Notes: generated by a model not told the origin, from the sequence alone. A stretch of DNA of 64,000 nt from Promethearchaeota archaeon Loki_b32 (GCA_005223125.1 NJBH01000018.1:1-64000); one strand, 5' to 3'; shown: positions 42,248 to 58,985, numbered from the stretch's first letter. Program-made: numbers and translations.

Positions 42248-43636
42248 CTAATTTTTAACGAATTTAATAATTTCATCTTTTATTTCATAATTTGGTAAGA
42301 CAAGATTAGTGAATCCTTTTTCTTTTGCGAATTTTGGCATAGCATAGAGGATACTTGTTTGTTCTGATTCGGCAATTGTCTTTCCGCCTACTCTTTTAAT
42401 TGCTCCTAATCCTTCAACGCCATCGGAACCCATACCTGTTAAAAGTATTCCCATAGCTCGATTTCTATAGATCTTAGCTGCAGAAAAAAACAAAACATCT
42501 ATAGATGGCATACAAAAATTAACTGGAGTTCCTTTATAGATTTTAATTAATGGCTTTTTGTTTTCTATAGAAATTTCCGTATGCATATCTCCAGGTGCTA
42601 TATAAACATAACCAGATTGAAGATAAACTCCATTTTGTGCTACTTTTACTTTTATATCGCATTCTATATTTAAATTATCTGCAAATGCCTCAGTAAAATG
42701 AGAAGATAAGTGTTGAACAATTAAAATTGGGGCATTAAAACCTCTAGGAATTTCTTTTAATATTGTAGTAAGTGTTCTTGGACCTCCTACACTTGCACCC
42801 ATAACAATTATATTTGAAGTTATTGTAGCTCCCTTAACAGGGGTAAGATCAGGAATATAAGCAGGTTTTTTCTTTTTAATTTGGACAGGAGAAATTGCTT
42901 TTTGCAATGTGGTTTTATCTTTCCTCTTTTTAAGTGATTTCGAAAGATTTATTGATTTTGCAGGCACTTTTAGACTATTATCATCCTCTTCTTTGACAGA
43001 AACTGTGCTTGTTTTACTTGAAGACTCATTTACGACTTCTGGTTTAGTTTCTTCCTTGAGAATTGCTTTAACTTTCATTAATTCAAATGAATCTTTTTCT
43101 TGTTCATCCTCAATTTCTTGAATAGGTTGTAATCGATTAAGGTATTGACCAAAATCAAAAATTCTATCAACTATTTCTTGGCGTAGAGTTCTACTCTTTT
43201 TTAATACACTTTCTTCTTTCCTGAAAATTCTTTTAATTTGAGATTGTGAAGCCAATAATACCTTAGCTAGCAATTCTTCACGAAACATAGGTAAATCTTT
43301 TGCACCTATTCCTCCAGGTTTTATAATATAATCAAATGCCCCCATTAAGAGAGCCTGAATGGAGGAATCTAAATTTTTAGGGCTGATAGCTGAAAGTATA
43401 ACTGTAGGAGTTGGGTGTTCTTCCATAATCAATTTGAATGCGTCAAGTCCGTTCATTTTAGGCATTACTAAATCTAAAACCAAGACATCTGGGCTATATT
43501 TTTTAACATATTCAACAGCTTCCTTTCCATCCTTTGCAAAGTCGACAATGTTAACTAAATCATGCTCTTTAAGAATATCTGCTATGTTTTTTCGTAAATA
43601 AGCAGAATCATCGGCAATAACTACATCAATCGTCAA
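42248..43636 (-). CDS. cheB: chemotaxis methylesterase CheB, long-linker copy
   Basis: Receiver DD...DLVMP...KP; esterase GASVGGP, VQH, LTGMGSDG. Confidence 0.93.
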   Translation of the reverse strand: MTIDVVIADDSAYLRKNIADILKEHDLVNIVDFAKDGKEAVEYVKKYSPDVLVLDLVMPKMNGLDAFKLIMEEHPTPTVILSAISPKNLDSSIQALLMGAFDYIIKPGGIGAKDLPMFREELLAKVLLASQSQIKRIFRKEESVLKKSRTLRQEIVDRIFDFGQYLNRLQPIQEIEDEQEKDSFELMKVKAILKEETKPEVVNESSSKTSTVSVKEEDDNSLKVPAKSINLSKSLKKRKDKTTLQKAISPVQIKKKKPAYIPDLTPVKGATITSNIIVMGASVGGPRTLTTILKEIPRGFNAPILIVQHLSSHFTEAFADNLNIECDIKVKVAQNGVYLQSGYVYIAPGDMHTEISIENKKPLIKIYKGTPVNFCMPSIDVLFFSAAKIYRNRAMGILLTGMGSDGVEGLGAIKRVGGKTIAESEQTSILYAMPKFAKEKGFTNLVLPNYEIKDEIIKFVKN

Positions 43637-43710
43637 ACAAAACTCCTATTTGTATTTAATTAATTATTCTTATAAATAGTAAAGTGAGGAAATTTATACG
43701 TTACTAAAAG

Positions 43711-44667
43711 CTAAAAAAGATTTGATATAAGAAAAGTAAACAATTCATCAATACCCTCTCCAGTAAATGCTGATGTCTCAAAAAAGGGTATATTGTATTG
43801 ATCTGCTAAATTTTGTGCTTTCATATTTATATCTTCAAGATTTTCAGCTAGATCTATTTTATTTCCCACAAGAATGTGAGGAATTGCTCTATTTCTTAAA
43901 GAGTGTTGTGATTCTTCGATCCAATCAGGGATTTTAGCTATAGTGTCTGATTGTGAGTAATCAAATAAAATTAGAACTGCATCTGAGTATTCGTAATAAA
44001 ATCTACGGATTTTAGCAAAACTTCTTGCACCACCTAAATCAAAAATATATAATTTTAAATTATAATCTTTTAAGATTTGTAGCTCTTTCTCTAGAATTGC
44101 AATTCCAATCGTGGGTTTGTAAACCCCATTTTCTTTAAAATTGTCCCCACAATACATTCTAGCTAATTTTGTTTTTCCCACCGTTTCAGATCCCACAAGT
44201 GTTATCTTTCTTACATTATTTTTATTATATTCCTCAGCAGGTAGAATTAGTTCCCCTTCATTATCCAATTTTGGAATTTGTAATGAGGTGTCATGATTAC
44301 TTAAAATTGATGAGATCTTTTCTGCTACTATATATGAATAGGGAATGAATTGATCAATATTGTTAGAATGATCTGCTACTAAAACGAAAATTGCGGGAAT
44401 ATTATTTCCTAATTCCATATAAAATAATTGAAAATCATTAGTATCAAAAGTACCACTTCCGAATGATGTTTCTGCATACCTCTTGATCTTATTTATGGTT
44501 TGATCTAAGATTGCCATAATTGCTCCAATTAATTCTTCATCAAATCCTTTTACTGAAGATCGAGCTATTATTAAACCATCTAAATCAACTACTAAAGCAG
44601 CTAGGAGATTTTGCGCTTCTTTTAGTAATTTATCTAATAATTCTTCTAACTTGGATACTTTTGACAT
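43711..44667 (-). CDS. roadblock domain fused to a Rab/Ras-like small GTPase
   Basis: N-terminal AALVVDLDGLIIA...DEELIGA; G1 GSETVGKT, G2 YKPTIG, G3 DLGG, G4 NKID, G5 ETSA. Confidence 0.88.
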   Translation of the reverse strand: MSKVSKLEELLDKLLKEAQNLLAALVVDLDGLIIARSSVKGFDEELIGAIMAILDQTINKIKRYAETSFGSGTFDTNDFQLFYMELGNNIPAIFVLVADHSNNIDQFIPYSYIVAEKISSILSNHDTSLQIPKLDNEGELILPAEEYNKNNVRKITLVGSETVGKTKLARMYCGDNFKENGVYKPTIGIAILEKELQILKDYNLKLYIFDLGGARSFAKIRRFYYEYSDAVLILFDYSQSDTIAKIPDWIEESQHSLRNRAIPHILVGNKIDLAENLEDINMKAQNLADQYNIPFFETSAFTGEGIDELFTFLISNLF

Positions 44668-44712
44668 ATATTATTCTTCTTTTTGTGCGGTTTTTAATTT
44701 AAATTATCTCAT

Positions 44713-45366
44713 TTAAAGATTGAGATCATATTTTAAGTTTAAAATATTAAATAGTCTTTTTAAGATATTAATAGAGGGGATAAGGCAAATAGTCCCTTCT
44801 AAATTTATATCTGAAACTGTTAATTTTGTATTTATTACTATCATTAAGTCCGATATTTGAGAATATTTTGCAATTATCCCTTCTAATATGGCATTTACTG
44901 TATCAATTGCAATTTTAGGAACATTTGGGACCAGTTTAGTGGATAATAAATCTGCTAAAGCATTTGTATAATGTCCTGATAAAATACTTCCTATTTCGGC
45001 TATGATGCTACAAGAAAAATCATCTAAATCATCAATAGATTTTAAATCTTCAATGGAAATTTTATTAAAGTCAGATAATATATTAATTAGATTAAGAATT
45101 GACTCTTTTGTAAAAATCTGAATAATTGCTAAATCTGAATTAAAGGGTATATCAGAAAAGATTCCTACCATATCAACATAAGGGTTGACAAAAAGATCTG
45201 GAACTTTCCAAAAGGAAATGATGTCTGCAGATGTTAATGAAACTTCAATTTTACCACTAATTAATTTTGAGAGTGCTGTGATAGCATGGCCAGACCCTAT
45301 ATTTCCAAGTTCTTTTAACATATCTAATTGATCTTGTGTTAATTTTATATTAACCGAATCATTCAT
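44713..45366 (-). CDS. cheC: CheY-P phosphatase CheC
   Basis: DMLKELGNIGSGHA.TALS; second site EIGS. Confidence 0.9.
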   Translation of the reverse strand: MNDSVNIKLTQDQLDMLKELGNIGSGHAITALSKLISGKIEVSLTSADIISFWKVPDLFVNPYVDMVGIFSDIPFNSDLAIIQIFTKESILNLINILSDFNKISIEDLKSIDDLDDFSCSIIAEIGSILSGHYTNALADLLSTKLVPNVPKIAIDTVNAILEGIIAKYSQISDLMIVINTKLTVSDINLEGTICLIPSINILKRLFNILNLKYDLNL

Positions 45367-45419
45367 GGTCCTTCTCCTCTTTTTTGATTCCTCTTTAAAT
45401 TTTTATATTAGTATAATTT

Positions 45420-45965
45420 TTAACTAGTTATTTTTTTAAAATTTGATTCTCTTGTTGATTTAACATAAACGGAGAAATCTTTAGTATCAAATATAACAGC
45501 TCTCCCCTCAGATCCTCCTGTATTCTCTCCTATAATTTTGATTTCTAATTTTTCTAATTCTTTTTTGATTGCTTCAGTGTTATTAATACCCATAAAATTC
45601 TCATCTAAATCAAAAATTTTTGAGCCTCCAACAATAATAGCCTTTATATTCTTCCTCATAGCTCCATGATTTATTAATTCTTGAATTAATAATTTTGCAG
45701 AGAGATCAGCATATTTGTGGGGAAAATTTATTGTTTTGTTTTGACGAGATTTAGGAAGTAATATATGAGACATTCCACTTACATTATTTTTGTTATCAAA
45801 AAGAATTAGAGCAATACAAGAACCTAATCCATAGATTGATATTTTTGGATCAACATTGTTAATCCTTTTTTTACAATTTATTATAGCATAATGCCCCATG
45901 GGTAAGAAAATTTCACCATTTTTATCTGATTTTTCAATACATCCATGGGGTTTTATCTTTTTCAC
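45420..45965 (-). CDS. cheD: chemoreceptor glutamine deamidase CheD
   Basis: GLGSC, GMSHILLP, KYAD, GGS..F, IGINN-like segment, TGG..GR. Confidence 0.9.
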   Translation of the reverse strand: MKKIKPHGCIEKSDKNGEIFLPMGHYAIINCKKRINNVDPKISIYGLGSCIALILFDNKNNVSGMSHILLPKSRQNKTINFPHKYADLSAKLLIQELINHGAMRKNIKAIIVGGSKIFDLDENFMGINNTEAIKKELEKLEIKIIGENTGGSEGRAVIFDTKDFSVYVKSTRESNFKKITS

Positions 45966-45989
45966 CTTTAAATTTAAAAAGTCTAATTA

Positions 45990-47135
45990 TTAATTTGATA
46001 TGTTAATTTCCTTTTTTCTTGCGTATTTTATCATGTGATCTTTAACTTCATAATTTGGGACTACTATATTCGCAGCTCCTCTTTTTACAGCTGCTTTAGG
46101 CATACCATAAACAACACATGTTTGCTCTGATTCTGCAATTGTTTTACCTCCCTCTTTTTTAATCGCTTCTAAGCCGGCAGCACCATCTTCTCCTAAACCA
46201 GTCAGTAAGATTCCTAGTATTTGATTTTTATATACTTCTGCTGCGGATAAAAATAATACATCAACCGAAGGCATACAAAAATTTACAGGTTCTCCTTTAA
46301 AGGTTTTTATACATGGTTTATTATTTCTTTGTATAACCTTCATATGTTTTCCTCCTGGACTAAGATAAGCAATTCCAGGAAGGATTTCTTCCCCATTAAC
46401 GGGAATTTTAATTTCGATATCGCAAACTTGATTTAAAGATTTTGAAAGTTCTTTCATAAAAAATGGATCTAAATGTTGAACGATTAATATTGGAATTGAA
46501 AAACCTTTCGGAATTTCTTTTAATATTGATTTTAAAGTTCTGGGACCACCAGTACTTGTTCCAATAACGATAACATTGGATTTTATTTTACTTTTTTTAA
46601 TAACTCTTTCTTTTTGAACCTTATCAATCTTTTGTTTTAGTCTTGTGCTTGTCTGATAATGTTCGATATTAGAATCGAATGAAGGAGGTTTCTTAACTGA
46701 TTTCTTAATTAATAAATTTCGCTTTTCATAAGTTTTTTTTATTTTTCCAGCATATAGGGTACTAGAAATTAATTTTTCTTTTAACTTCGGGAATTCTTCT
46801 TCCCACAATCCTTTTGGTTTTATAATAAAATCGAAAGCTCCTAAAAGCAAAGCTTGGATAGAATCATCTAATGTTTCTGGATTTTTAGCTGAAAATATTA
46901 TCGTAGGTATTGGATAGTGTTCTGAAAGGAATTTGAATACCGTTATCCCATCGACTTCGGGCATCATTAAATCTAAAATTAATACATCAGGATTAAATGT
47001 TTCAACTTTTTCAATTGCTTCTCTTCCATTCCTGGCAAGTTCTACACTTGCAATTTCATTGTTTGACAATAACATATCAGAGATTACTTTTCTTTGAAAG
47101 CTTGAATCTTCCGCCACAAGAACTTTAATTGATAT
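45990..47135 (-). CDS. cheB: chemotaxis methylesterase CheB, second copy; probable ATA start
   Basis: GTSTGGP, VQH, LTGLGEDG; the in-frame ISIKVL upstream of the track start (47117) completes receiver strand 1. Confidence 0.92.
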   Translation of the reverse strand: MSIKVLVAEDSSFQRKVISDMLLSNNEIASVELARNGREAIEKVETFNPDVLILDLMMPEVDGITVFKFLSEHYPIPTIIFSAKNPETLDDSIQALLLGAFDFIIKPKGLWEEEFPKLKEKLISSTLYAGKIKKTYEKRNLLIKKSVKKPPSFDSNIEHYQTSTRLKQKIDKVQKERVIKKSKIKSNVIVIGTSTGGPRTLKSILKEIPKGFSIPILIVQHLDPFFMKELSKSLNQVCDIEIKIPVNGEEILPGIAYLSPGGKHMKVIQRNNKPCIKTFKGEPVNFCMPSVDVLFLSAAEVYKNQILGILLTGLGEDGAAGLEAIKKEGGKTIAESEQTCVVYGMPKAAVKRGAANIVVPNYEVKDHMIKYARKKEINISN

Positions 47136-48156
47136 TTAAGTCCCCCTCTTTTATATATATACGATTATATGAATCTATCAGCTTTAAGTCTCCCTGAAAG
47201 TTATTTAAAGCTTCAGTTTTCCCTAAGATTAACAGACCACCTGGATTCAACCTGTTTCTAAGAATATTTGAAAATTCTTTACGTGTTCTTCTACTAAAGT
47301 AAATTAAAAGATATCGACAAAAGATTATATCATACGTTAAAGAAGTTTGATGCCCTCTCGTCACATCCTCTTCAATAAATTCAACCTGATTTTTAATTTG
47401 CTTATTTATTGAATAAGTATATCCAAAATTTTCATTTTCTTTATTAAAATATTTATTTTCATAAAATTTTGAAACACTTTTTGTGGAATCTTCATTATAT
47501 ATCCCTTTTTTTGCTCTATTTATAGCTTCTCTATCTATATCTGAAGCAATGATTCTAAATTGCGGAAATTTAGGAATTTGATTTTTGAGATTATCTAAAA
47601 TCATTGCAATCGAATAAGGTTCTTCACCATTAGCACATGGACATGACCATATATTAATATGTCTTTCAGATTCTGAAGGATTCCATATTTTTCTGTATAA
47701 TGAAGTTTGGTATAAGATTTGATTAATTGAATGTTTTCTAAATTTTTTTGGATTCTTATATCTATTTTGAGAATTCATAGAATCTTTTTTCGTTCTTACT
47801 CTATATTGTCTTTCTGGATTAGGAGTTAAATCACTTATAATATCTCCATTTTTTAGGTATAAAGCAGATAAAAATATCTTTTCAAATTGCCTAAAGACTT
47901 CCCAATTTCTAAAAAAAACAGAATAATTAATATTAAAACAATCAAAAAATTTATTGGTTTCTGAAGAGTTTTCTAACAGATAATTATAGTAAGATTCAAG
48001 AGTACCGCAATTAACACGAATCATTCTTGATTTGATTCTTTTTTCAATAAATTTTTTTCGATAATAATCCAAATTCAATCCAGTAGAATTCATTAAAAAG
48101 TGAATTAGAGGCTCATAATAATCCGAATCAAATCTAATATCATCAATTCGTATCAC
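47125..48156 (-). CDS. cheR: chemotaxis methyltransferase CheR, divergent, with a basic insertion
   Basis: FFRN, IWSCPCANGEEPYS, IIASDID, YDIIFCRYLLIYF, PGGLLILGKTE. Confidence 0.9.
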   Translation of the reverse strand: MIRIDDIRFDSDYYEPLIHFLMNSTGLNLDYYRKKFIEKRIKSRMIRVNCGTLESYYNYLLENSSETNKFFDCFNINYSVFFRNWEVFRQFEKIFLSALYLKNGDIISDLTPNPERQYRVRTKKDSMNSQNRYKNPKKFRKHSINQILYQTSLYRKIWNPSESERHINIWSCPCANGEEPYSIAMILDNLKNQIPKFPQFRIIASDIDREAINRAKKGIYNEDSTKSVSKFYENKYFNKENENFGYTYSINKQIKNQVEFIEEDVTRGHQTSLTYDIIFCRYLLIYFSRRTRKEFSNILRNRLNPGGLLILGKTEALNNFQGDLKLIDSYNRIYIKEGDLNIN

Positions 48157-48167
48157 TTCTAAACACT

Positions 48168-48713
48168 TTATTTTCCTAATAGTTTTTCAATTTCAGCAAA
48201 ACGTCGCTGCATATGATCCATTGAATACTTTATATGCATTTGTATTTCTTTAATCTCAGATAAAATCTTTCTAATATGAGATTTCGTAGATTTTGATAAC
48301 GCCAAATCACCTTCTGATATTTCTGATTCTATAATTTGGCTTGGCGTAAATTGCAACCCATAAGTTTGTGAAGATTCAGTTTTATATCTGGATTGTCCGG
48401 GATAATTCAGATTAACTCTATTTTCTTTAATTTCATTAAAAATCGGATGAAAATCTTCTGGTTCAATACCTTGTTTAATGACTTCATATTTGAAGTTATA
48501 AAATTTCTTTTTAGTTTTGAGTTTTCCCGCGAAGTTTGCTGCCATGTAGCGGTGAAATAAACGAGAATGACTACCTGCCCATATCCAAATAAGTTTTAAT
48601 TTCTTATCTACAATTAAATACACACCATTAGGATCAAATATTTTCTCAGGTCTAAGTTTAAGTGTTTCACCTTGCACTTCGTAAATATAGTCATAATAAC
48701 CGCTTTTTAACAT
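48168..48713 (-). CDS. single gelsolin-domain protein with a C-terminal helix/coiled coil
   Basis: FDPNGVYLIVD....IWIWAG..S....RYMA...A..L and VIKQGIEPEDF match the gelsolin repeat consensus. Confidence 0.78.
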   Translation of the reverse strand: MLKSGYYDYIYEVQGETLKLRPEKIFDPNGVYLIVDKKLKLIWIWAGSHSRLFHRYMAANFAGKLKTKKKFYNFKYEVIKQGIEPEDFHPIFNEIKENRVNLNYPGQSRYKTESSQTYGLQFTPSQIIESEISEGDLALSKSTKSHIRKILSEIKEIQMHIKYSMDHMQRRFAEIEKLLGK

Positions 48714-48835
48714 GGGTTTTTTAACCTATTGATTTTTGGTGTTTTATAAAGGTTTATATTTATTTTGGAGATTCTTGCTTTATTTTTGAAATATTTAAAA
48801 AAAATATTAAATATGGATTACTTTTAGTAGGTTTC

Positions 48836-50821
48836 TTATGAATAAAACTTTAAAAGTGCATCCAATAATTCATGTAAAGTTTCTAAGCTTGGAATAAATA
48901 AAAATGTACCAGTAATTTTTATATCTGTAATAAGAACACTTGTAGTGATTACCAGCGATAGCTTCTTAAGTAATCCAATTTCTTCTTTTAGGATCTTAAA
49001 CAACTGAGATCCCGTATCAACGGACATGTCTGGAGGCTCTGTCATTAGACGTAACCCTAATAGATCGCCTATTGCACTCACGTAATGACTACCTAAAATA
49101 TGACCCAGTTCAGAGATGGCACTGCGATAAAGTTCTGGAAAATCAGAAGACTTGTTAATTTTCTTTCTCATATCGATTTGTTTCTTGTCTCTATCATCTA
49201 CTATTATTGACGTTATATCTACTGCATCATTTATGTTAAATATTGTTAGGACAGTAGCTCGCGTTTTACCAACAACATTACTCCATGCGACCAAAAGTTT
49301 TTCATTCTTTTTACTAATGTTATTGGCATATTCATCTAATTCAACCATCTCTACTGTTGGAACATTTATATCTACTCTTTTATTGATCATTTGAGCTAAT
49401 GCATTTGCAGCATTTCCTGCACCAATATTACCGACTTCTTGTAAAGCATCTCTTTGAACTTCTGTAAGCTGTATTTTATCAATATCTAACATCTCTGGTA
49501 ACTCCTTAGGCTTCCTCGTCCCTATAGCTATTTCATGCTCTATTCCTAATTTATTAAAAAATGATTTTAAAGTTTGAAGATCTGGTATAAAGAAGAACAT
49601 ACCTTTTAGTTTCAAATCAGCTACTGAGATAGACGTTTTAATTACTATAAAGAATTCAGCAACCGATTTTAGTTCTTTAGAGAGAAATTCTCCAATTTCC
49701 CCAGCTTGACTCATTGTAAATTCAGGAACGTCAATCATTAATTTTGTACCTAATAAATCAGCCAATGCCGAAGCATAATGTCCTGCCATGATATTTCCCA
49801 TTTCAACAATAGTGGAAACTGCATAATCATCAAGATCCTTCTTAGATTTAACCTTATTTGGGTCTATTTTTGATTTATTTCCTGCTAAATCTGCAATCAT
49901 CTTCATTAATGGTTTCATTTCAAATATATTTAAGATAGTTGCTTGAGATGGTTTTTCTATATGGCAAAAGATCCCACACACTTTCTCTTTAGGTCCACCA
50001 AATTGTGCAGGTAATTCTTCTAGAGGTATAATTCCTACATCTGTAAGAGTAACATCAATTTTCTTTTTGACCAATCGAGATAAGGCTGTGACTGCATTTC
50101 CAGTACCAATATTTCCAATTTCTTTAAGCATATCTTGCTGTTCATCTGATAATTCAACCTCCCTTTGTTCCACTTCTTCTGGAATAGCCGTTAACTTCAT
50201 TGAAGGTTGGATTTTCTGAGGGATTATAACCGTTGAATCAACATCTGCTTTAGTTTTTGGTTTAGCTTTTGATTTAGGTTTTACTTTAGGTCGTTCAAGA
50301 ACTTTTGGTTTTAGATCTTCTTTTTTCTCTACTCTTGAGCCTAAAGATTTGATATAGGGTTTAATTAAAGCTTCCAAATCTAATAGTATTAGTGTTTCAT
50401 CCTGAAAAATACCAGTTAATTTTATTAATCTGAAATCAATATTGGTTTTTACAATAGTACCCTGTCTTTTGAAGATTGAGATTGGAAAATCTTTAACTCC
50501 TATTACAGCATCTACTAATAAAGCAATTTTTAAATCCTCATACTCTAAAACTAAAATTCGTGAAGTGCTAGTTAATCTATAATCAACATCATTACCATGA
50601 ATATTGTGTCTTAAAGAGATGATAGAATAAATCTCTCCTCTTATATTAATAATGCCAACTATAGATTTTTCTGCTAACGGAACTGGAATGATTTTTTCTC
50701 CAGGAACATAAATTTCCTTTACATATTCCACTTCAATGAGATGTCTTTCATTAAGAACTTGAATAATTACAACATTTACTGTTTCTCCAAAATCAATATT
50801 ATCAGATTCAGTTTCTAACAT
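48836..50821 (-). CDS. CheW-CheC-CheC fusion protein
   Basis: CheW (PVP.....IVGIINIRGEI), K/P-rich linker, two CheC units (DMLKEIGN/EMGN and DALQEVGN/ELGH). Confidence 0.88.
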   Translation of the reverse strand: MLETESDNIDFGETVNVVIIQVLNERHLIEVEYVKEIYVPGEKIIPVPLAEKSIVGIINIRGEIYSIISLRHNIHGNDVDYRLTSTSRILVLEYEDLKIALLVDAVIGVKDFPISIFKRQGTIVKTNIDFRLIKLTGIFQDETLILLDLEALIKPYIKSLGSRVEKKEDLKPKVLERPKVKPKSKAKPKTKADVDSTVIIPQKIQPSMKLTAIPEEVEQREVELSDEQQDMLKEIGNIGTGNAVTALSRLVKKKIDVTLTDVGIIPLEELPAQFGGPKEKVCGIFCHIEKPSQATILNIFEMKPLMKMIADLAGNKSKIDPNKVKSKKDLDDYAVSTIVEMGNIMAGHYASALADLLGTKLMIDVPEFTMSQAGEIGEFLSKELKSVAEFFIVIKTSISVADLKLKGMFFFIPDLQTLKSFFNKLGIEHEIAIGTRKPKELPEMLDIDKIQLTEVQRDALQEVGNIGAGNAANALAQMINKRVDINVPTVEMVELDEYANNISKKNEKLLVAWSNVVGKTRATVLTIFNINDAVDITSIIVDDRDKKQIDMRKKINKSSDFPELYRSAISELGHILGSHYVSAIGDLLGLRLMTEPPDMSVDTGSQLFKILKEEIGLLKKLSLVITTSVLITDIKITGTFLFIPSLETLHELLDALLKFYS

Positions 50822-50866
50822 TTTAATTTCCTCTTGTTTTTTCTCCTATTCCTTTTAAATAAATTA

Positions 50867-51715
50867 TTATTTTAACATAATTCCTTTCCAAATTAGTTCT
50901 ACTTCGGGTTCTTCCTCATTAACTTCTGTAAAAAAATCAATTTGTCTATAAACTGAAATTTGACCGCCTTTTGTATGTTTGAATGCATAATTTAACATAT
51001 CATCCGTCCTAGTAAAATTAAAACCCGCAAGTTTTAACTCTGAATCATTTACAATTATAAGATCTTCATTGTTAAAAGGACGATTTTCTTCAATCCATTC
51101 GACCCATATTTCAGGTGATAGTTCCTTGCTTATAATTTTGATTGGTTCGTCAAATGGTATATTACGGAATGATTTACCAGTTGCAAAAATAATTCTGTCA
51201 GGGATTAAGTTTTCTTTCTTAGCAAATTCATTCAATTTATTAAATGCCTTCTTATATTTACTCAATTCCAAAACATCATAGCATAGACATAAAATCACAT
51301 CTTTATCTTCCGTTTCAACAATAAAATCTATCACTTGATCTGGATTGGAATCTTGGTTAATTTTTATCGATTTTAATTTTAGATTTAACATGTATTTAAG
51401 GTATTGATAAAAACGCCATTTTAAACTTAATTTATCGGATTTTTCTCTACTTATGAAAATCTGAAACATATCTTTTAATTGTTTTATAGTTAATTTCGAT
51501 AAATCAGCTTTTTTTCCACTGTCATTCCCAATTACAACATATCCTTGATTTGACTTTACTTTTGAATTTTTCTTTTGCTTGGATGGTTCTGCTGCAACAT
51601 CTTGTAAAAACTTTTTCAGTTCGCTCACAGTGAAATGTGGTAAAACCTGCTCGATGAGATATAATAAATATTCCTTTGATTTATCATCCATCATTTCATA
51701 ATACTGTAGTTTCAT
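50867..51715 (-). CDS. hypothetical protein within the che cluster, possible degenerate PD-(D/E)xK-like fold
   Basis: 282 aa; VIDFIVETEDKDVILCLC; fold guess is weak. Confidence 0.55.
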   Translation of the reverse strand: MKLQYYEMMDDKSKEYLLYLIEQVLPHFTVSELKKFLQDVAAEPSKQKKNSKVKSNQGYVVIGNDSGKKADLSKLTIKQLKDMFQIFISREKSDKLSLKWRFYQYLKYMLNLKLKSIKINQDSNPDQVIDFIVETEDKDVILCLCYDVLELSKYKKAFNKLNEFAKKENLIPDRIIFATGKSFRNIPFDEPIKIISKELSPEIWVEWIEENRPFNNEDLIIVNDSELKLAGFNFTRTDDMLNYAFKHTKGGQISVYRQIDFFTEVNEEEPEVELIWKGIMLK

Positions 51716-51756
51716 TTTATTTCCTCCTTATTTTTTTTCTTAATTTTTTTAATTAA

Positions 51757-53784
51757 TTATCCGACGAAATATGATTCTAACTCTGAATATTTAGCTTCTT
51801 TTCCACTTATGCTTTTTAGATAATACATAATCTCTCTCTCTTGGTAGGGTAAAAGAGCATTAATTGTGAAAGAAATGTTTTGATCCCCATTCTTCTTTGA
51901 TTTACTAAGTTTATGTTCTATATTTGAGGAGATTAGTTCAAAAGACTCTGGAATAGTATCTGTAATATTCACGTCATTAAGTTTTATACTTGAACCATTT
52001 TTTGCTACAATGTAAATAGCAAATTCATTAGCACTCCTCCCTGGATATATTTGTTTTCCGACCATCACTTTCCGTCTTTTATGAGAAATGTTTATTGAAG
52101 ATTTCTCCTGATCAGAGAGATTATTCGTTATCATATAAAATTCTTTAATACCAGAATTTTTAAATCTTGAATAAAATGCAGAGACATTAAGTGGAAAATC
52201 ATAAGCTTTTTTATAATCGGGTGTCATAGCTTTGAGGGGATATTTCAATTCTAAGAAATCATCCACCTCAATCACTGATTTTAAAGCGCCATTTTTTAAA
52301 TTAATGTTAAGTTCGATAGTATGCTCATGAGTTGGATCTTCATCATCAGGCTTTAAATTCAATTCAATTTCTCCTATGTTTAGTTTACCAGATGATCTAG
52401 ACAATGTATAATCTGAAATATTTCTTGATGGTAAGAAATCTTCTGGTACCCTTTCTACAATTCGAAGACCGTTGATTGGAATAGTACCTTGATTATTTAT
52501 AATAATTTTAGAATTTAATACCGTTTCTTCAAATGATTTAATTTCTTCTTCTGATAATTTCTTTTTTAGAACAATATTAACTACTATAAAGAAACTATCA
52601 TCAAATCTCGAAGTAATCATTGAATTCTTTTCTGTTCTGTAATCAACTGAATATTCTACTTTTCTTGAAAATGTTGGTTCTTTTTCATCAACACAATCAA
52701 AAGATTCTGTCTTATATTTACCACGAGGATTAATTATTGCACTTCCTGAAGTTTTAAAATCTAAATCTAGGATTTTTGTAGTTTTAGATTTATCATATAC
52801 TAAAACTGAATTTAATTTCAATTTGAAATCACTATGATTCTCGAATATAAGTGAACATTGCCAATTATTTGGAGCGTGATTCTTCTCTGTTTTCTTAATA
52901 GCGTGCATTGCATGTGAATATGCTGAGAAATGGTTGATCTTTACTCCGGAAATTACTTTATTTGATAAGTTAAATGTTATTTCAATATTTCCAGTTTTAA
53001 TATTTTCTTTCTTTTTAGGGAATAATTTTGCTAGAATAGTAATTTCTACTTTTTCCCCAGGATTTAGATTATTTAAAGAGCAGTCTATAGAATTTCTAGT
53101 AACTTTAAATTCCTTACCTTTATTACTGTTAAATTCTAAATCGTAAAAATTTTCTGTAAATGATTTTTTAAACTTAATGTTTTCAAGTATAGAAGTTGAA
53201 ATATTTACAATATTAATTGAAAATTTCACCTTATTTTCTTTTCCTAATAATAGTAAATAATTCTTTTTATTACCTACTTTCAAGGTTTCATTTTCAATTA
53301 GATCCGACTCTTTATTATCATTTTTAAAGATTTTGATATCTTCACTAAGATTTTCTATATTTTCACTCACTTCTATTAAATCAGGTAAATCATCAGAATT
53401 GACAATTTCATATTTCAATACTTTATTTGAATTAGGCTCAAAAATCCCTAAATTTAGATTATTATCTGTCTTTTGATTATTAAATTGTGAGCCTGAAAAT
53501 TGTAAATTTGCATCCCAAATTCTGTCTTTAACAGAGTTATTAAAAATTGAAATATTTCCATTACCTGTGACTGCTTTTCTTGCTCCATCATTTTGATAAT
53601 GAAATTCCATAAACTCTTCATTTAATATCAATACTTCTGACATTGAACCTGTATAACTTGATTCAATTTTCTTTTCTCTGTGACTTTTTTGTATTAATTT
53701 ACCACCTTCCCTTATAGGGATACCAAGAAAATTTGGGCTAATTTTTGTCTTTAATTCGTCATGATCAATTTTTTTAAAACCCAT
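51757..53784 (-). CDS. beta-sandwich repeat protein (DUF11/Ig-like), apparently cytoplasmic
   Basis: Repeated N.G.....V.I.D.IP..F and I..L.P..... motifs; no signal peptide or TM segment. Confidence 0.6.
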   Translation of the reverse strand: MGFKKIDHDELKTKISPNFLGIPIREGGKLIQKSHREKKIESSYTGSMSEVLILNEEFMEFHYQNDGARKAVTGNGNISIFNNSVKDRIWDANLQFSGSQFNNQKTDNNLNLGIFEPNSNKVLKYEIVNSDDLPDLIEVSENIENLSEDIKIFKNDNKESDLIENETLKVGNKKNYLLLLGKENKVKFSINIVNISTSILENIKFKKSFTENFYDLEFNSNKGKEFKVTRNSIDCSLNNLNPGEKVEITILAKLFPKKKENIKTGNIEITFNLSNKVISGVKINHFSAYSHAMHAIKKTEKNHAPNNWQCSLIFENHSDFKLKLNSVLVYDKSKTTKILDLDFKTSGSAIINPRGKYKTESFDCVDEKEPTFSRKVEYSVDYRTEKNSMITSRFDDSFFIVVNIVLKKKLSEEEIKSFEETVLNSKIIINNQGTIPINGLRIVERVPEDFLPSRNISDYTLSRSSGKLNIGEIELNLKPDDEDPTHEHTIELNINLKNGALKSVIEVDDFLELKYPLKAMTPDYKKAYDFPLNVSAFYSRFKNSGIKEFYMITNNLSDQEKSSINISHKRRKVMVGKQIYPGRSANEFAIYIVAKNGSSIKLNDVNITDTIPESFELISSNIEHKLSKSKKNGDQNISFTINALLPYQEREIMYYLKSISGKEAKYSELESYFVG

Positions 53785-53840
53785 CTTATTTTTCCTCCAA
53801 GTTTTTCTTCATTTGATTCATTTATTATTTGTAAAAAAAA

Positions 53841-55913
53841 TTATTTTAACTTAGAAATTATATTTTCATTTAATTTATTTGAAATTATACTCAAAACATC
53901 GATTATTAGACATATTCCTCCTTCACCTGTAATTGAAGAGCCTAAAATATCTCGGGAATCAGAATAATTAGACTTGAAAGGTTTCACAACTACATCCAAT
54001 TGTTGAAGTTGTTTATCTGCGATAAATACTACCGAATTTTCCTCATCTCTTTGACACCATATAGCAATTTTTTTATAGGAATTCGTCGTGGATTTGTCTA
54101 CCATATTCAAATGTTCATCTAAATGAATTACTGGTAAAGATTTTGATTTAATTTTATAGTATTGTTCCCCTTCTATGTATTCAACCTGGTTTGGATTGTA
54201 AAAGTATATCTGTTTAATATTTTCAGTTGGAATCGCAAATAGGTCATCAGCAATCTGGATTAGTTGAGCTCTTAATATTGCTCTAGTAAATGGTACTTCT
54301 ATAGTAAATTTTGTACCGATATTTTTTTGTGATTGAATATTAAAATCACCACCTAATTCCTTTATTTTTTCTGCCATTATAGCTAAACCCATCCCTCTGC
54401 CTGAAAGAATATCCGCATCTGAAAGTGTAGAGAACCCAGGCATAAGAATAAATTGATGTAAATCCTCATCACTTAATTGTTTAGCATCCTCTGAGTTATA
54501 ATATCTTCTACTTACAACTTTTTCTCTTATTTTATCATAATTAATACCCATACCATCATCTTGCACCTCAATGAAAATTGATCCTGATCTTCGATATGTT
54601 CTTAATCTTAATGTTCCAAGTTCATTTTTCCCTTTTTTAACTCGTTCCCTTGGTGATTCGATTCCATGATAAATTGCATTCCGAATTAATTGGACTAATG
54701 GAGAATTGATTTCCTCTAAGATTTTTCTATCAATTTCAACATTAGTTCCTTCAAGAATTAGTCTCAATTTTTTACCAGTTTCATTTGCTACATCACGAAC
54801 TAGTCGTTTATATTTTCTAAAAGTAGATTCAACCCTAACTAATTTTAATTTGAAAAGTATTTCTTGAATATCTAGAAAAGGTTTATCCATTTTATCAATT
54901 AACCTTACTAATGTTCTGTCTTGTTTCTTCTTTAAAAGTTGATTGATGTGATTCTTCATTATTATTAGTTCTCCGAAATAGTTCATTAATTCCTCTAAAT
55001 GCTCGATGTTAACTTTAACACTCGTTATTTTAATATTGTCTTCTGAAAAGTCGCCTACAATTTCAGAAACTCTCTCAATTTCTTCAATGTCTTCTTCTTC
55101 ATCATAATCGTCTAAAAGTAACTCGCTACTCATAGATTCTGATTTTTCTGTTTCCCATTTTTCTTTAAGATCTGTAATAGTTTTTTTAAATTCTCCTGAA
55201 TTTAGTGGAGTAATAACTTTATTTTCTATTTCCAAAATCTCATCTAAAACCTGAGATATTTTATCTTTCTTATTTTGTGTGATATAATATATTTCAAACT
55301 CATTTCTAAGAGTAGCTTTTTCTAAATCTTCAGGCGCTGGATTGGTACAACAGATTTTACCATTTTCATTTAACGCTCTAAATATAATAAATAATCTTAC
55401 TTTTTTGAAAACACAGGTATCTTCAAGGCGAACATAAATCTTAAATGATTTATTTTGTTTTTGATTAAGAAGTTTAGTAATTTCTTCTTGGTTTAAAGAC
55501 TGAATAAAGGTGATATCATACACAGTCTCAAAACTCTCAAAACTATTTTTTATGTCTTCAACAAAATTTCCATCAATATCACTTAAATCTCCTTTTTTCA
55601 CTCGGTTTAAGAAATTTCTTAGCACATCAAGACTTTCAAATAACATACCAATGAAATTTTGTCTTTTGCTTTTAGATACTTTCTTCTCCTTAGCATTTTC
55701 CAAAAGAGATTCAAAATGATGGCAGAACTTAGACAGATTGTCAAAACCGGCCATTGCAGTTAATCCTTTCAATGTATGAAATGTGAAGAAAAGTTCTTTT
55801 ATTGGTTTAGAATTCTCTGGATTTTCTTCAAAAGATAGTATTTCTTCCTCTGTTTTCTGAATCAGATCTTCGGATTCACTTATAAAAAGTTTTATATCGT
55901 CTTTAGATGACAC
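53841..55913 (-). CDS. cheA: chemotaxis histidine kinase CheA (P1-P5)
   Basis: P1 FHTLKG, P2, dimerisation LMNYFGELII, RNAIYHGIE, DDGMGI, PGFST, SGRGMGL, CheW-like P5. Confidence 0.96.
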   Translation of the reverse strand: MSSKDDIKLFISESEDLIQKTEEEILSFEENPENSKPIKELFFTFHTLKGLTAMAGFDNLSKFCHHFESLLENAKEKKVSKSKRQNFIGMLFESLDVLRNFLNRVKKGDLSDIDGNFVEDIKNSFESFETVYDITFIQSLNQEEITKLLNQKQNKSFKIYVRLEDTCVFKKVRLFIIFRALNENGKICCTNPAPEDLEKATLRNEFEIYYITQNKKDKISQVLDEILEIENKVITPLNSGEFKKTITDLKEKWETEKSESMSSELLLDDYDEEEDIEEIERVSEIVGDFSEDNIKITSVKVNIEHLEELMNYFGELIIMKNHINQLLKKKQDRTLVRLIDKMDKPFLDIQEILFKLKLVRVESTFRKYKRLVRDVANETGKKLRLILEGTNVEIDRKILEEINSPLVQLIRNAIYHGIESPRERVKKGKNELGTLRLRTYRRSGSIFIEVQDDGMGINYDKIREKVVSRRYYNSEDAKQLSDEDLHQFILMPGFSTLSDADILSGRGMGLAIMAEKIKELGGDFNIQSQKNIGTKFTIEVPFTRAILRAQLIQIADDLFAIPTENIKQIYFYNPNQVEYIEGEQYYKIKSKSLPVIHLDEHLNMVDKSTTNSYKKIAIWCQRDEENSVVFIADKQLQQLDVVVKPFKSNYSDSRDILGSSITGEGGICLIIDVLSIISNKLNENIISKLK

Positions 55914-55942
55914 ATAATCACCTTATATCCTCATTATTTTAA

Positions 55943-56341
55943 TTAATTCTTCTCTGCTGTTTTAATTTTAAGTATACGGTCCATAACCTCTACAATTTGT
56001 TCAGTTTTGAATGGTTTTTGAATGAAATCTTTTGCCCCTTTTTTCGCTGCCTCAAGAACTAATGCCTCTTGACCTAGCGCAGAAACTACAACTATCAATG
56101 CTTTTGAGTTTATTTTTAGAATCTCCTCTGTTGCTTCAATGCCGCCCTTTTCTGGCATTACTAAATCCATAGTAACTAAATCAGGATTTAATTTTTTATA
56201 TAAGGAGATAGCCTCAACTCCATTTGAAGCTTCACCAATAACCTCAATTTGTTCGATTTTATTTATTATGTTTTTTAACATATTTCGTGTAAATTGGGCA
56301 TCATCAACAATCAAAACCTTTTTCTTTTCATTCTTTGTCAT
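55943..56341 (-). CDS. cheY: chemotaxis response regulator CheY
   Basis: VLIVDD, TMDLVMP, VSALGQ, FIQKPF. Confidence 0.93.
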   Translation of the reverse strand: MTKNEKKKVLIVDDAQFTRNMLKNIINKIEQIEVIGEASNGVEAISLYKKLNPDLVTMDLVMPEKGGIEATEEILKINSKALIVVVSALGQEALVLEAAKKGAKDFIQKPFKTEQIVEVMDRILKIKTAEKN

Positions 56342-56361
56342 ATTATCAACTCCTATTTATT

Positions 56362-56892
56362 TTATGTTAATGATGATAAATCTTGTTGGATTCTAAATTT
56401 ATCAACGTCACTAAAAATCTTGCTTAAATCAAGCATTACCCTTGGTCGTTCCTCAAAGTTAATAATTCCGTTAATAAATTCCATAGCAACACTCGTTTGA
56501 AAGATGGGACTCAATCCTACGATCTGAGTTGGGTCTACATGGTCTATACTAAGTATGGAATCGGTATAGAACCCAATTAAATCATTATCCATTTTAAGAA
56601 TTATGATAAAATTTTTCGAAGTACTTGAATCTTCTTCAAATGTGGAGTATTTTGAATGATATAGAACATACTGATCTAGATTCAATTTTTTCTTCAAGTT
56701 AATTACGTGAATAATTTCTCCTCGGTAATTATAGATGCCATCGATGTAGCCTAAGCTTTTGGGTAACTTTCTTATTAGACCTGCTTGAATTATTTCCTTT
56801 ACTTGATACAAATCAATGCAGAACTCTTCCCATCCAATCTGGAAAGATAGGATAGAAACTTGATCTTGTCCTTCATGTGCATTTATACTCAT
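56362..56892 (-). CDS. cheW: chemotaxis adaptor CheW
   Basis: F.IG.EEF.ID..QVKEII, LPKS..YIDGIYNYRGEII.VINL. Confidence 0.9.
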   Translation of the reverse strand: MSINAHEGQDQVSILSFQIGWEEFCIDLYQVKEIIQAGLIRKLPKSLGYIDGIYNYRGEIIHVINLKKKLNLDQYVLYHSKYSTFEEDSSTSKNFIIILKMDNDLIGFYTDSILSIDHVDPTQIVGLSPIFQTSVAMEFINGIINFEERPRVMLDLSKIFSDVDKFRIQQDLSSLT

Positions 56893-56912
56893 TTTTTTTA
56901 CCTACTTTTTCT

Positions 56913-57776
56913 TTAAATTATAAAATATTGGTTAATTTTACTTTCAAATTCGTTAAATGGAGTAACATCTCCATTAAATTCTTTTATATAATTGCGGAAA
57001 TCGAAAAGGAATTCGTCCGCGATAAGATACATATACCTTTGAAGTAATTGGTTCATATTTTCTACAAGAAAGGCAAAAATAACATTACTTTTTGATATAA
57101 CATAAAATTGTTGGTTCCCGAAGTTAATCTCTTTAAGTTTTGCTCCAGTTTCCTCTCCAATAATTGTATTTGAGAAGGATAATAAAGCTGAGATAAATCC
57201 CCCAATGTGAACTTCGTGATCAGCAATATTAGATCGTTTTTTATTAATTTTTGATATAAATGGACTTCCTGTAGAACCAATTATAAATATTGCAATAACT
57301 CCATCAGTTTTTGGAATCTCAATCTCTGATTCAAAAAATTTGGTTATTTCTGATATTGGAACGTTTGAAAGAATTTTTTTATTAATCTTTTTGGATAAAA
57401 AGTATAATTTTGGGAAATTCACCGGAACAGTCGGTTCTTTTTCTTCCATGTATATGAATACTGATATATTTTTCTCTCCATTTTTAAAATATTGAATATG
57501 AATCGTAAAAGCATCCAATGGAATAATTGAATTCCCTTGTCTTTTACTTATTATTTCTTTTTTATATAATTCGAAGATATTCTGAATGAGTGAAATTCCA
57601 ATACCATTTTGAAATAGAACATTAAGCTTCCCCCCAGAGTCAAGTTCTGAGATATTTAACAAACCATAACCTAGTATATATAATTTTTCAGATGCGTTAT
57701 TTGAGTTTTGAGCTGCGTTATTCATGGCTATCATATTGCCTTCATGCTTTTTTTTAAGAAATTTTTTATTAATCAA
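56913..57776 (-). CDS. longin-like domain protein, first gene of the che cluster; true start may be a downstream ATG
   Basis: C-terminal AIFII.STG.P...IGGFISALLSFS...LKEINFG...EF...F...I.EFNGDV..F.EF pattern typical of Asgard longin domains. Confidence 0.65.
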   Translation of the reverse strand: MINKKFLKKKHEGNMIAMNNAAQNSNNASEKLYILGYGLLNISELDSGGKLNVLFQNGIGISLIQNIFELYKKEIISKRQGNSIIPLDAFTIHIQYFKNGEKNISVFIYMEEKEPTVPVNFPKLYFLSKKINKKILSNVPISEITKFFESEIEIPKTDGVIAIFIIGSTGSPFISKINKKRSNIADHEVHIGGFISALLSFSNTIIGEETGAKLKEINFGNQQFYVISKSNVIFAFLVENMNQLLQRYMYLIADEFLFDFRNYIKEFNGDVTPFNEFESKINQYFII

Positions 57777-58340
57777 TAAAAATCATAATATCTGGGTGTT
57801 CCTGGCTTTTTCTCTGAGTATTCTTCATTATCCAGTAGTTAGAAATTTTTTACACCTTTTATCAAAATCATAAAATTTTTATGTAAAATTTTATCGAGTT
57901 TTTGCTTTTTTTGTAAAATTCATTATATTGAACTAAAAAACTTATATTAGAAAATATATATAAATTTAATGTTATAGAAAATTGTTATCCGTATACAAAC
58001 ACATCTTCTTTTAAACATTTGAAATTCTTAAAATTTAAGCTACCAACTTCAATTAAAACGACTTTATTTTAATATAAGGTCAAATTTGTAAATAGTATTT
58101 AGAGTTTAAGTTTGACAAAAATTTAAATAGCTCCAAAAAATTACATAGGTAAGTAGAATTTTGAATGTCAAATTATATTCAATTACTGGAAATAACATAC
58201 AAAGTATGGATTTGAACACACAAATTTAATATTATTCTGAGTTATATTTAATAATGTCTAAATAAAAATAGTAAAGAATATTATCAAAATTGAAATCAGG
58301 ATTAAACCTAAATGTTTTAAAATTTTGGAAAGAGATTATC

Positions 58341-58985
58341 ATGAATGCTCAAACTGGAATAAACCAAGGAAACGAAGAATTTTTAAAAGAGATTATAATT
58401 AGATGTCCACAATGCTCAACAAATAAAAAATTGAAGATTCCTAAAAAAGTTATTGATCAAAGTAAGCAATTAACTACAATATCTATTCCTTCAAATTTGT
58501 GCTGTGAACATAGTTTTCAAGCTTTTGTTGACAAAAATTTTATTGTTAGAGGTTATCAAAAAGTAGATTTTGAGTTTTCTCATATGGAATTTTATGAAAG
58601 CAGTGAGGGTTCTTATGATACGGAAGGTTTTACATCAAAACCAATTTTTCAACAAATAATCCAATTATTAAGAGATTGTATTGAAGATAAGGATATTCTA
58701 GGGTCGGGGATGTTTACAGTTGAAGGAAAAGTGTTGTATTCTTCACTGCCTCAAACAACTTTGTTTAATACAATTCGTGAATTTGAAGTCAGAAGCGAAC
58801 AACATTTGATTAGCTTAAAGAAAATGTATCTAGAGTTAGATAACAGTGAGAAGTTTATCTCAACTATAATTTCCTTTAATGGATTGAAATTCAATTTAGT
58901 GTTAATGTTTTCTTTTCGCACAAAATTTGGAATGGGCAATCTCCATATGCGCGATTTACTAAAAAAAATAGAGAAAATAAACTAA
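58341..58985 (+). CDS. Zn-ribbon plus roadblock/profilin-like domain protein
   Basis: CPQC...CCEHSFQAFVDKNF.VRGYQ, then ILGSGMFTVEGKVLYSSLP; ATG at 58341 preferred over TTG at 58290. Confidence 0.65.
   Translation: MNAQTGINQGNEEFLKEIIIRCPQCSTNKKLKIPKKVIDQSKQLTTISIPSNLCCEHSFQAFVDKNFIVRGYQKVDFEFSHMEFYESSEGSYDTEGFTSKPIFQQIIQLLRDCIEDKDILGSGMFTVEGKVLYSSLPQTTLFNTIREFEVRSEQHLISLKKMYLELDNSEKFISTIISFNGLKFNLVLMFSFRTKFGMGNLHMRDLLKKIEKIN

Follow-up and report, generated by a model that had tools for sequence, protein, structure and literature searches.

A conserved F1-like chemosensory operon of Lokiarchaeia with dedicated eukaryote-like accessory genes and no CheF-archaellum output

The closest described relatives of the system considered here are the F1-type chemotaxis systems of Halobacterium, Haloferax, Methanococcus and Pyrococcus, in which a core comprising CheA with a P2 domain, CheC, CheD and receiver-bearing CheB is served by the adaptor CheF and the ArlCDE switch of the archaellum (PMC10117864, PMC6718144). 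In the Asgard archaea, a study of Ca. Lokiarchaeum ossiferum reported cheA, cheB, cheC, cheD, cheR, cheW and cheY genes, 15 methyl-accepting chemotaxis proteins (MCPs) as well as putative chemoreceptor arrays, with che genes in 27 of 97 metagenome-assembled genomes; Asgard Che genes are known from that work at the level of presence and absence, and a role in communication and motility was suggested (PMC9834061). L. ossiferum has also been reported to encode an archaellum, in the form of an arl-like cluster, and cores of type IV filament (T4F) machinery are scattered among 677 Asgard genomes (PMC13705601). Crawling with actin-filled protrusions is likewise known in Asgard cells; it depends on Lokiactin, with which gelsolins co-precipitate, and the paper that describes it is silent on chemotaxis (PMC13716822). 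Here, a 14-gene che operon at positions 42248-57776 (minus strand) of a 64,000-nt stretch of DNA from Promethearchaeota archaeon Loki_b32 (the window, whose positions serve as coordinates) was analysed. The operon encodes an F1-like chemosensory pathway, of the Bacillus/Thermotoga/archaeal type, which lacks the CheF-archaellum output and possesses a dedicated, co-inherited accessory module. It is real and conserved: a chemosensory system of a known kind, accompanied by eukaryote-like proteins that are dedicated to it. The gene linkage is apparently unpublished: full-text literature searches, which covered few subscription journals, returned no paper on it, and none that names an output for Loki Che systems lacking CheF.

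An original prediction, made from the sequence alone, had described 14 closely spaced genes on one strand, running from a longin-like gene to a second cheB, with the phosphorelay residues and the CheB and CheD catalytic residues in place. Analysis of open reading frames (ORFs) and Pfam searches bore out the number, strand and order of the genes, which are separated by gaps of 7-122 nt, and confirmed CheW, a receiver protein CheY, a five-domain CheA with P2, a CheW-CheC-CheC fusion, CheR, two receiver-CheB proteins, CheD, CheC and the roadblock and Ras domains of a small GTPase. The residues found are the phospho-histidine of CheA (H46), D13/D14/D59/S87/F106/K109 of CheY, D49/S188/H215/D311 of CheB1, D55/S282/H309/D405 of CheB2 and C50/H67 of CheD; the E-x-x-N motifs of CheC are also present. 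Both the domain set of CheA (Hpt, P2, dimerisation, HATPase and CheW, with the phospho-histidine) and the set of components (CheW, stand-alone CheY, CheR, receiver-CheB, CheC and CheD with their catalytic residues) are those of the F1 type, as are the receptors, four MCPs with transmembrane (TM) segments encoded on contigs C18 and C29 of the genome. The best NCBIfam match of CheA is CheA_Halo, yet it falls under the cut-off of that model, and Pfam revealed no receiver domain in CheA. Among solved structures, CheY is closest to the proteins of T. maritima and P. horikoshii; E92, which lies near an acidic patch proposed for CheF binding, was not used as a marker, the patch being weak even in P. 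horikoshii. By established F1-type chemistry, the gene set is complete for receptor-controlled autophosphorylation of CheA, phosphotransfer to CheY and the two CheB proteins, adaptation via CheR, CheB and CheD, and termination by the CheC domains. Additional CheR, CheB and CheR-CheD genes exist beyond the operon, including a stand-alone protein with CheR-like and CheD-like parts (G000:C51:5790-7811). All 47 genomes that carry the operon's type of CheA encode MCPs, as many as 20 of them; in several genera, the gene immediately before the operon is that of an MCP.

The accessory module was defined by comparison across the class Lokiarchaeia, in which the operon type of CheA occurs in 47 of 161 genomes, spread over 10 genera and three families. 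Adjacency, counted over 41 loci, is invariant for longin to cheW (28/28 loci), for cheA to the gene of a 675-aa protein resembling mu-homology domains (MHDs) of vesicle-coat adaptors (36/36) and for the latter to the gene of a 282-aa protein (39/39), and nearly so for the 282-aa gene to cheW-cheC-cheC (38/39) and for cheW-cheC-cheC to a gelsolin-domain gene (31/32). The gene that follows gelsolin varies, with five different neighbours, and cheR, cheB, cheD, cheC and the GTPase gene are shuffled or lost among relatives; at 47-60% CheA identity, the accessory genes keep their position better than cheR, cheB, cheD and cheC. Since such ORFs are many in the genome (61 for small GTPases, ~14 that are longin-like and at least seven that are gelsolin-like), a single one near che could reflect chance; a conserved position of the accessory genes across 9-10 genera does not. 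The gelsolin ortholog was found in 41 genomes, all 41 of which have the operon CheA, and in none of the other 114. Among the six cheA genomes without it, the contig ends before the position of the gene in four, cheA is matched in part only in a fifth, and the sixth, G140, lacks the gene outright. The gelsolin tree tracks that of CheA, with 8 of 10 supported splits in common and a patristic correlation of 0.87 (0.93 for the cheW-cheC-cheC control), and the 282-aa and 675-aa proteins give values of 0.96 and 0.97. The accessory genes tested are under purifying selection (dN/dS 0.12-0.27 from one pairwise comparison, with 0.20 for gelsolin). Four genes, those of gelsolin, longin and the 675-aa and 282-aa proteins, thus keep their place and are inherited together with cheA. 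Co-occurrence is nevertheless inflated by loss of the operon as a block, since G047 has, at the same chromosomal site (L139, C52:28000-47000), a clean deletion of 13 genes, cheW through cheB2, that leaves the longin gene beside EF-2; one orphan MCP is kept in that genome. Longin can therefore stand alone. In G044, a single chromosome, the operon lies in two distant parts (L039, L136), split between the 282-aa and cheW-cheC-cheC genes; longin and cheW are missing and gelsolin stays with cheW-cheC-cheC, an arrangement due to either rearrangement or an assembly artefact. CheA-like matches in G007, G019, G021 and G131 were excluded as a different protein in which the N-terminal part alone is alike. 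Such proteins, of ~560 aa, lie at L065:9862-11544 and similarly in G007, G019 and G021; the one scanned has two P2 domains and no kinase domain, and they are candidates for stand-alone CheY binding.

The absence of a conventional output was then assessed at the level of the genome, which is of Lokiarchaeia type (4.13 Mb, 95.5% complete, contamination 4.6%; relatives are labelled Promethearchaeota/Lokiarchaeia). No MCP, CheF or arl gene was detected by Pfam in the cluster or its flanks, as had been predicted for the window; taken more broadly, the claim that receptor genes are lacking holds within the window only, the four MCPs, and with them every MCP match in the genome, lying on other contigs, and the claim that there is no motor is to be qualified by a divergent T4F core on contig C61. 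Genome-wide searches found no CheF, no archaellin, no ArlJ match and no A24 prepilin peptidase, so that an arl cluster with archaellins and an ArlJ-type platform is absent and just the divergent T4F core is present. The original prediction would have been undermined by an archaellum with CheF elsewhere in the genome combined with unconserved linkage of the accessory genes, and neither was found. CheF is missing from every one of the 47 genomes with the operon CheA; the sole match among the 161 genomes, in G145, is a partial domain in a genome with the other Loki CheA type and no archaellin, and was not counted. There, the C-terminal part of a CheF domain is fused to leucine-rich repeats and cut by the contig end (L134:4317-5573). 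The T4F core (G000:C61:97487-101647) lies beside ribosomal protein genes and is unlinked to che genes. It comprises an ATPase like FlaI/VirB11 (E 5e-29, well short of the FlaI cut-off), a pilin-like ORF with one TM segment and a platform-like protein with six, which scored 0.95 with the nearest Atlas clusters, of T2SSF type; the same three-gene locus occurs in three of three che-negative genomes tested. A reading in which pilus machinery is lacking altogether was dropped in view of these genes. Pfam PF00482 and the ArlJ query miss the divergent platform gene, and the class-wide PF00482 count of 5/161 is an underestimate of T4F cores. The genome thus has no archaellum, but it is not devoid of filament machinery. 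Two ORFs with bacterial-type prepilin N-termini on a 5.4-kb contig (G000:C17) probably belong to a contaminant.

Distant homologs of the 282-aa protein led to a second type of Che operon in Lokiarchaeia, ordered MCP, cheW, cheY, cheB, cheA, cheD, mu-like, 282-like, cheW-cheC-cheC and cheR, and usually followed by a small longin gene and a zinc-ribbon-like gene weakly similar to that beside the operon in the window. The CheA of this type is 24-30% identical to the operon CheA, and a CheA tree separates the two types; with no outgroups and with long-branch joins, the tree permits no conclusion on origin or sisterhood. Because the mu-like, 282-like, cheW-cheC-cheC and longin genes recur in the second type, in whose searched loci no gelsolin was found, the products of these four genes constitute the deepest common module, gelsolin and the roadblock-Rab protein being additions of the type found in the window. 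A different arrangement is seen in G150, a 6.04-Mb single contig taken to be L. ossiferum, an identity inferred here. It has three Che clusters, three CheAs that are 24-28% identical to the operon CheA, 18 MCP matches, an arl-like cluster with genes resembling ArlG/F, ArlH, ArlI and ArlJ, and three genes of archaellin type (L137, L129-L131); no CheF was matched by Pfam. As the block is missing from this presumed crawler, crawling does not need the accessory module, and no cell known to have the operon has accordingly been filmed while crawling.

Of the accessory proteins, the 675-aa protein is the one with the clearest structural relatives. Its AlphaFold2 (AF2) model (pLDDT 82) matches MHDs over residues 45-396, with an inserted Ig/DUF11 module; the best match is AP2 mu2 (VIA Z 17.1, root-mean-square deviation 3.6, 228 residues aligned), the top six of 48,161 chains are MHDs of AP2, AP3 and AP4 mu and of delta-COP, and Foldseek TM scores by target are 0.63-0.70. 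The assignment rests on structure and one Pfam match (PF00928, E 1.1e-5, in one ortholog), alignment against PDB sequences having given no MHD match. With the MHDs of AP1-4 mu, delta-COP and Syp1/SGIP1 the protein shares a beta-sandwich fold of two subdomains, aligned over 210-228 residues at Z 11-17; it differs in its inserted Ig module, its two extra Ig domains, the lack of the N-terminal longin that is fused in AP mu and delta-COP, an identity of 10-16% and the location of its gene immediately after cheA. No TM segment was found, and the N-terminal 45 residues, modelled with low confidence, are too short for a fused longin, the longin being encoded by a separate gene of the operon. Mu C-terminal domains have already been reported from Asgard archaea (Eme et al. 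2023, PMC10307638), and the 675-aa protein is the che-linked paralog of a pan-Lokiarchaeia family with weaker paralogs in 154 of 161 genomes. Long variants of 970-1220 aa, with an insertion of ~300-500 residues after residue 150, were seen at L048-L053 and L057. For the 282-aa protein (AF2 pLDDT 88), nearly all top structural matches of the core are of the PD-(D/E)xK, restriction-endonuclease-like fold, at modest scores (best Z 8.1, Foldseek E >=0.01), and all ESM Atlas matches are below 0.9. Within A2, D130 is invariant, but no acid-x-Lys is conserved on the strand that follows, and the catalytic (D/E)-x-K motif is absent; since the nuclease-like fold lacks its catalytic motif, the modelled protein may well be an interaction module. 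Co-folding of CheY with the 282-aa protein scored 0.00, which is evidence neither for nor against their interaction. Of 400 Asgard genomes, 46 yielded a member of the family, all of them che-positive Lokiarchaeia, and in the contexts read its gene is always beside a mu-like gene or in a che operon. No member turned up in 239 Asgard genomes from outside the class, and for this reason the system is probably an innovation of Lokiarchaeia, an analogy for the eukaryotic ancestor and not a record of it.

The gelsolin-domain protein is on its own under the Pfam cut-off (E 0.007), PF00626 being matched by 11 of 18 family members, and the family profile matches Thor ProGel 7C2F (E 1.7e-7, the closest), 2DGel, villin and CapG. 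Residues W45 and G47 of the W-x-G motif are invariant, and the long helix, with invariant L52, F53, R55, Y56, L65 and K66, aligns with that of ProGel; the conserved C-terminal amphipathic helix gives weak coiled-coil matches. ProGel binds actin, and 1DGelX, in which a predicted coiled coil accompanies the gelsolin domain, is a calcium-independent actin-severing protein (PMC7444086). The che-linked protein shares with these Thorarchaeota proteins the single gelsolin domain, the W-x-G motif, a similar long helix and, with 1DGelX, a C-terminal helical extension; it nonetheless forms a clade of its own, its likeness to 1DGelX is architectural and its actin binding is putative. The longin assignment is weak, with Fuz_longin_1 matched at best at E 5e-5. 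A second double-longin paralog lies in a row consisting of a small membrane gene, an MCP, a kinase-receiver hybrid, the paralog and a roadblock-like gene (G000:C29:30329-34159), and the pairing of MCP and longin recurs in ~9 relatives, some of them without cheA. As to the GTPase, its roadblock domain is at about the Pfam cut-off and its GTPase domain is Rab-like: Pfam gives Ras/Roc/Arf, the best PDB matches are Ypt51, Rab33 and Rab30, and the top 60 are all Rab/Ral with no MglA among them. Motifs G1, G2, G4 and G5 are intact; G3 reads D-x-G-G-L/A, and the catalytic glutamine of switch II is missing in 15 of 15 aligned members. A short ortholog occurs in 34 genomes, and its gene directly follows gelsolin in four loci; each of these genomes is che-positive, 33 of them through cheA and G004 through a neighbouring cheC. 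The GTPase gene has been lost from otherwise intact operons in G039, G062, G046, G009 and G140, three of these within the source genus, and is absent from most second-type operons; the search scored 14 candidates per genome, and since its absence from 14 genomes may include misses, losses seen at the locus alone were counted. The predicted switch of MglA/MglB type does not agree with a Rab-like protein that lacks the switch-II glutamine and is not obligatory.

A route from this pathway to the cytoskeleton can be envisaged. We infer, with somewhat less than even confidence, that the Che output runs via a scaffold of the 282-aa and mu-homology proteins, with gelsolin passing the signal to actin, because CheF is absent, the output face of CheY is nearly invariant and the accessory genes are more fixed than the adaptation genes. 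Membrane MCPs would form arrays with CheW and CheA, and the mu-homology and 282-aa proteins, common to both Che types, would, as a cortical scaffold or adaptor, stand in for CheF as the recipient of CheY-P; at the array, CheY-P would be reset by the CheW-CheC-CheC fusion. In the operon type of the window, the signal would go on to the gelsolin-domain protein, which may bind or sever filaments of Lokiactin (the genome has four actin-family genes) and so bias the growth or retraction of protrusions; longin and roadblock-Rab would be optional modulators and not the core switch. The fuller proposal, that the phosphorelay is wired directly to eukaryote-type machinery and steers actin protrusions through CheY-P acting on the 282-aa/mu scaffold, the dedicated gelsolin and longin/Rab modulators, is put forward with more doubt. 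The original suggestion of a che core repurposed for actin steering is consistent with the lack of CheF and archaellin and with the conserved, co-inherited accessory genes, but the absence of gelsolin from the second type speaks against it. Several other observations also weigh against a route to actin. Approximately 70% of the class lacks the accessory module; 25 of the 47 genomes belong to one genus, kin are not independent, and the evidence of linkage is all genomic. No gelsolin was found in the second-type loci searched, G140 keeps its operon without it, and block loss, as in G047, removes linked genes whatever their function. Neither a gelsolin nor a 282-aa ortholog was found in G150, and no accessory genes lie beside its CheAs. 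The source genome does possess a divergent T4F core, the invariant face of CheY may be held by CheA-P2 or CheC, and ProGel, the closest solved relative of the gelsolin, binds actin weakly (Kd ~337 uM; PMC7444086).

Organisation of receptor arrays is the main rival to actin output, and is regarded as rather unlikely. The accessory proteins would then build, position or turn over arrays, the mu-homology and longin proteins binding receptor tails or the membrane and gelsolin either anchoring arrays to actin or being a plain interaction module, while CheY-P would act elsewhere or on a non-motile output, for instance adhesion, contact with a partner or the regulation of genes. Mu-homology domains are known as cargo adaptors and scaffolds, and gelsolin-fold domains also serve in non-actin roles, for example in Sec23/Sec24; consistent with this rival, too, are the location of the mu-like and 282-aa genes between cheA and the CheW fusion in both Che types, the MCP-longin pairings described above and the PAS kinases that flank many operon loci. 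Array organisation does not account, however, for the retention, alongside as many as 20 receptors, of the complete adaptation set that is usual in gradient sensing, and the gelsolin helix resembles that of actin-binding ProGel. Che systems usually control filaments, and control of the T4F locus on C61, with the 282-aa protein as a CheF analogue and gelsolin secondary, would be in keeping with the FlaI/VirB11-like ATPase and its T2SSF-like six-TM neighbour, and with the scatter of T4F cores in Asgard genomes (PMC13705601). The locus does not track Che, however, given its presence in che-negative genomes, and it stands apart from the che genes; searches of the genome gave neither an archaellin nor a match to ArlJ or A24 peptidase, and CheA is without the fused receiver that pilus-class systems typically have. 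We consider this explanation improbable.

Two further explanations concern the accessory genes themselves. An ordinary Che operon could once have captured genes of abundant Asgard families, whose order was then kept by inertia or shared expression without functional coupling. The many GTPase, longin-like and gelsolin-like paralogs and the breadth of the mu-like family are compatible with such hitchhiking, as are the survival of longin after operon loss and the loss of the GTPase and, once, of gelsolin. It is made distinctly improbable by the firmer hold of the accessory genes on their place, relative to cheR, cheB, cheD and cheC; by the restriction of the 282-aa family to che-positive Lokiarchaeia and che or mu-like neighbourhoods; by recurrence of the mu-like, 282-aa and longin genes with CheAs of 24-30% identity; and by a gelsolin ortholog that is never kept without cheA. 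Highly improbable is an obligatory, Frz/Mgl-like polarity switch controlling gelsolin, in which CheY-P would act via the roadblock-GTPase with longin as guanine nucleotide exchange factor and roadblock as GTPase-activating protein. Restriction of the short GTPase ortholog to che-positive genomes, its place after gelsolin in four loci and the need that a GTPase without catalytic glutamine would have for an activating protein speak for it; yet the GTPase is Rab-like rather than MglA-like, at least five genomes have lost it from operons that are otherwise intact, it is absent from most second-type operons, and CheA is not a receiver hybrid of FrzE type.

If the proposed output to actin is correct, a prokaryotic two-component pathway steers the actin cytoskeleton through adaptin-like, gelsolin and Rab-like proteins, a class of chemotaxis output distinct from flagella, archaella and pili, and the operon provides a short list of expressible candidate proteins for the steering of actin-based crawling. 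Even if the link to actin fails, the mu-homology and 282-aa proteins are candidates for new dedicated chemosensory components.

The features of the locus are collected in Table 1. The operon is flanked by a convergent EF-2-like gene on one side and a divergent zinc-ribbon-like gene on the other, and its GC content of 29.1% matches that of the genome (29.9%). Translation of the longin-like gene probably starts at the ATG at 57734, and that of cheB1 at an ATA at 47135 that overlaps with the end of cheR. Most of the region is covered by DNA contigs from related strains, one of which spans 12.8 kb from cheB2 to cheY, so that misassembly is disfavoured. Two RNA runs gave nothing on the operon region and have no bearing on co-transcription, and a scan of the region for sigma-70 promoters and terminators, a model unsuited to archaea, returned matches at chance level.

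Table 1. Genes of the che operon and its immediate neighbours, in window coordinates
Feature	Coordinates	Strand	Evidence or remark
Longin-like protein (two alpha/beta halves, C-terminal half longin-like)	56913..57776	-	Fuz_longin_1 in 5/21 orthologs
CheW	56362..56892	-	PF01584, E 5e-23
CheY, Thermotoga/Thermococcales-like	55943..56341	-	alpha4-beta5 output face nearly invariant; dN/dS 0.04
CheA (Hpt, P2, dimerisation, HATPase, CheW)	53841..55913	-	sole copy in genome
675-aa mu-homology-domain-like protein, cytoplasmic, with two C-terminal Ig-like domains	51757..53784	-	AF2 model, structure matches
282-aa che-specific protein	50867..51715	-	core resembles PD-(D/E)xK nuclease fold, without catalytic E-x-K
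CheW-CheC-CheC fusion (adaptor and CheY-P phosphatase domains)	48836..50821	-	Pfam
Single gelsolin-homology domain, 181 aa, variable linker, conserved C-terminal amphipathic helix (1DGelX-like architecture)	48168..48713	-	
CheR	47125..48156	-	Pfam; missing from operon in several relatives
CheB1 (receiver and methylesterase)	45990..47135	-	Pfam and residues
CheD	45420..45965	-	Pfam and residues
CheC	44713..45366	-	Pfam
Roadblock domain fused to Rab-like small GTPase	43711..44667	-	Pfam; variable operon member
CheB2, long linker	42248..43636	-	Pfam and residues
Zinc-ribbon-like protein, divergent from operon	58290-58985	+	stays adjacent in several genera; ~10 paralogs in genome
EF-2-like gene, convergent on operon	40028-42217	+	at operon end in most genomes of the genus

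Compared with the systems described previously, the Loki operon resembles the Frz pathway of Myxococcus (MglA/MglB/RomRX) in being a Che-like pathway without a flagellum beside a roadblock domain and a small GTPase. It differs in that the Loki GTPase is Rab-like, fused to its roadblock domain and dispensable, CheA has no FrzE-type receiver, the receptors are membrane-bound, and CheC and CheD are present. With the archaeal F1-type systems it shares the same core (PMC10117864, PMC6718144), whereas the genome that carries it has neither the CheF nor the archaellin of their output; to that core the operon adds the CheW-CheC-CheC fusion and the embedded genes for the mu-homology, putative dead-nuclease-fold, gelsolin, longin and roadblock-Rab proteins.

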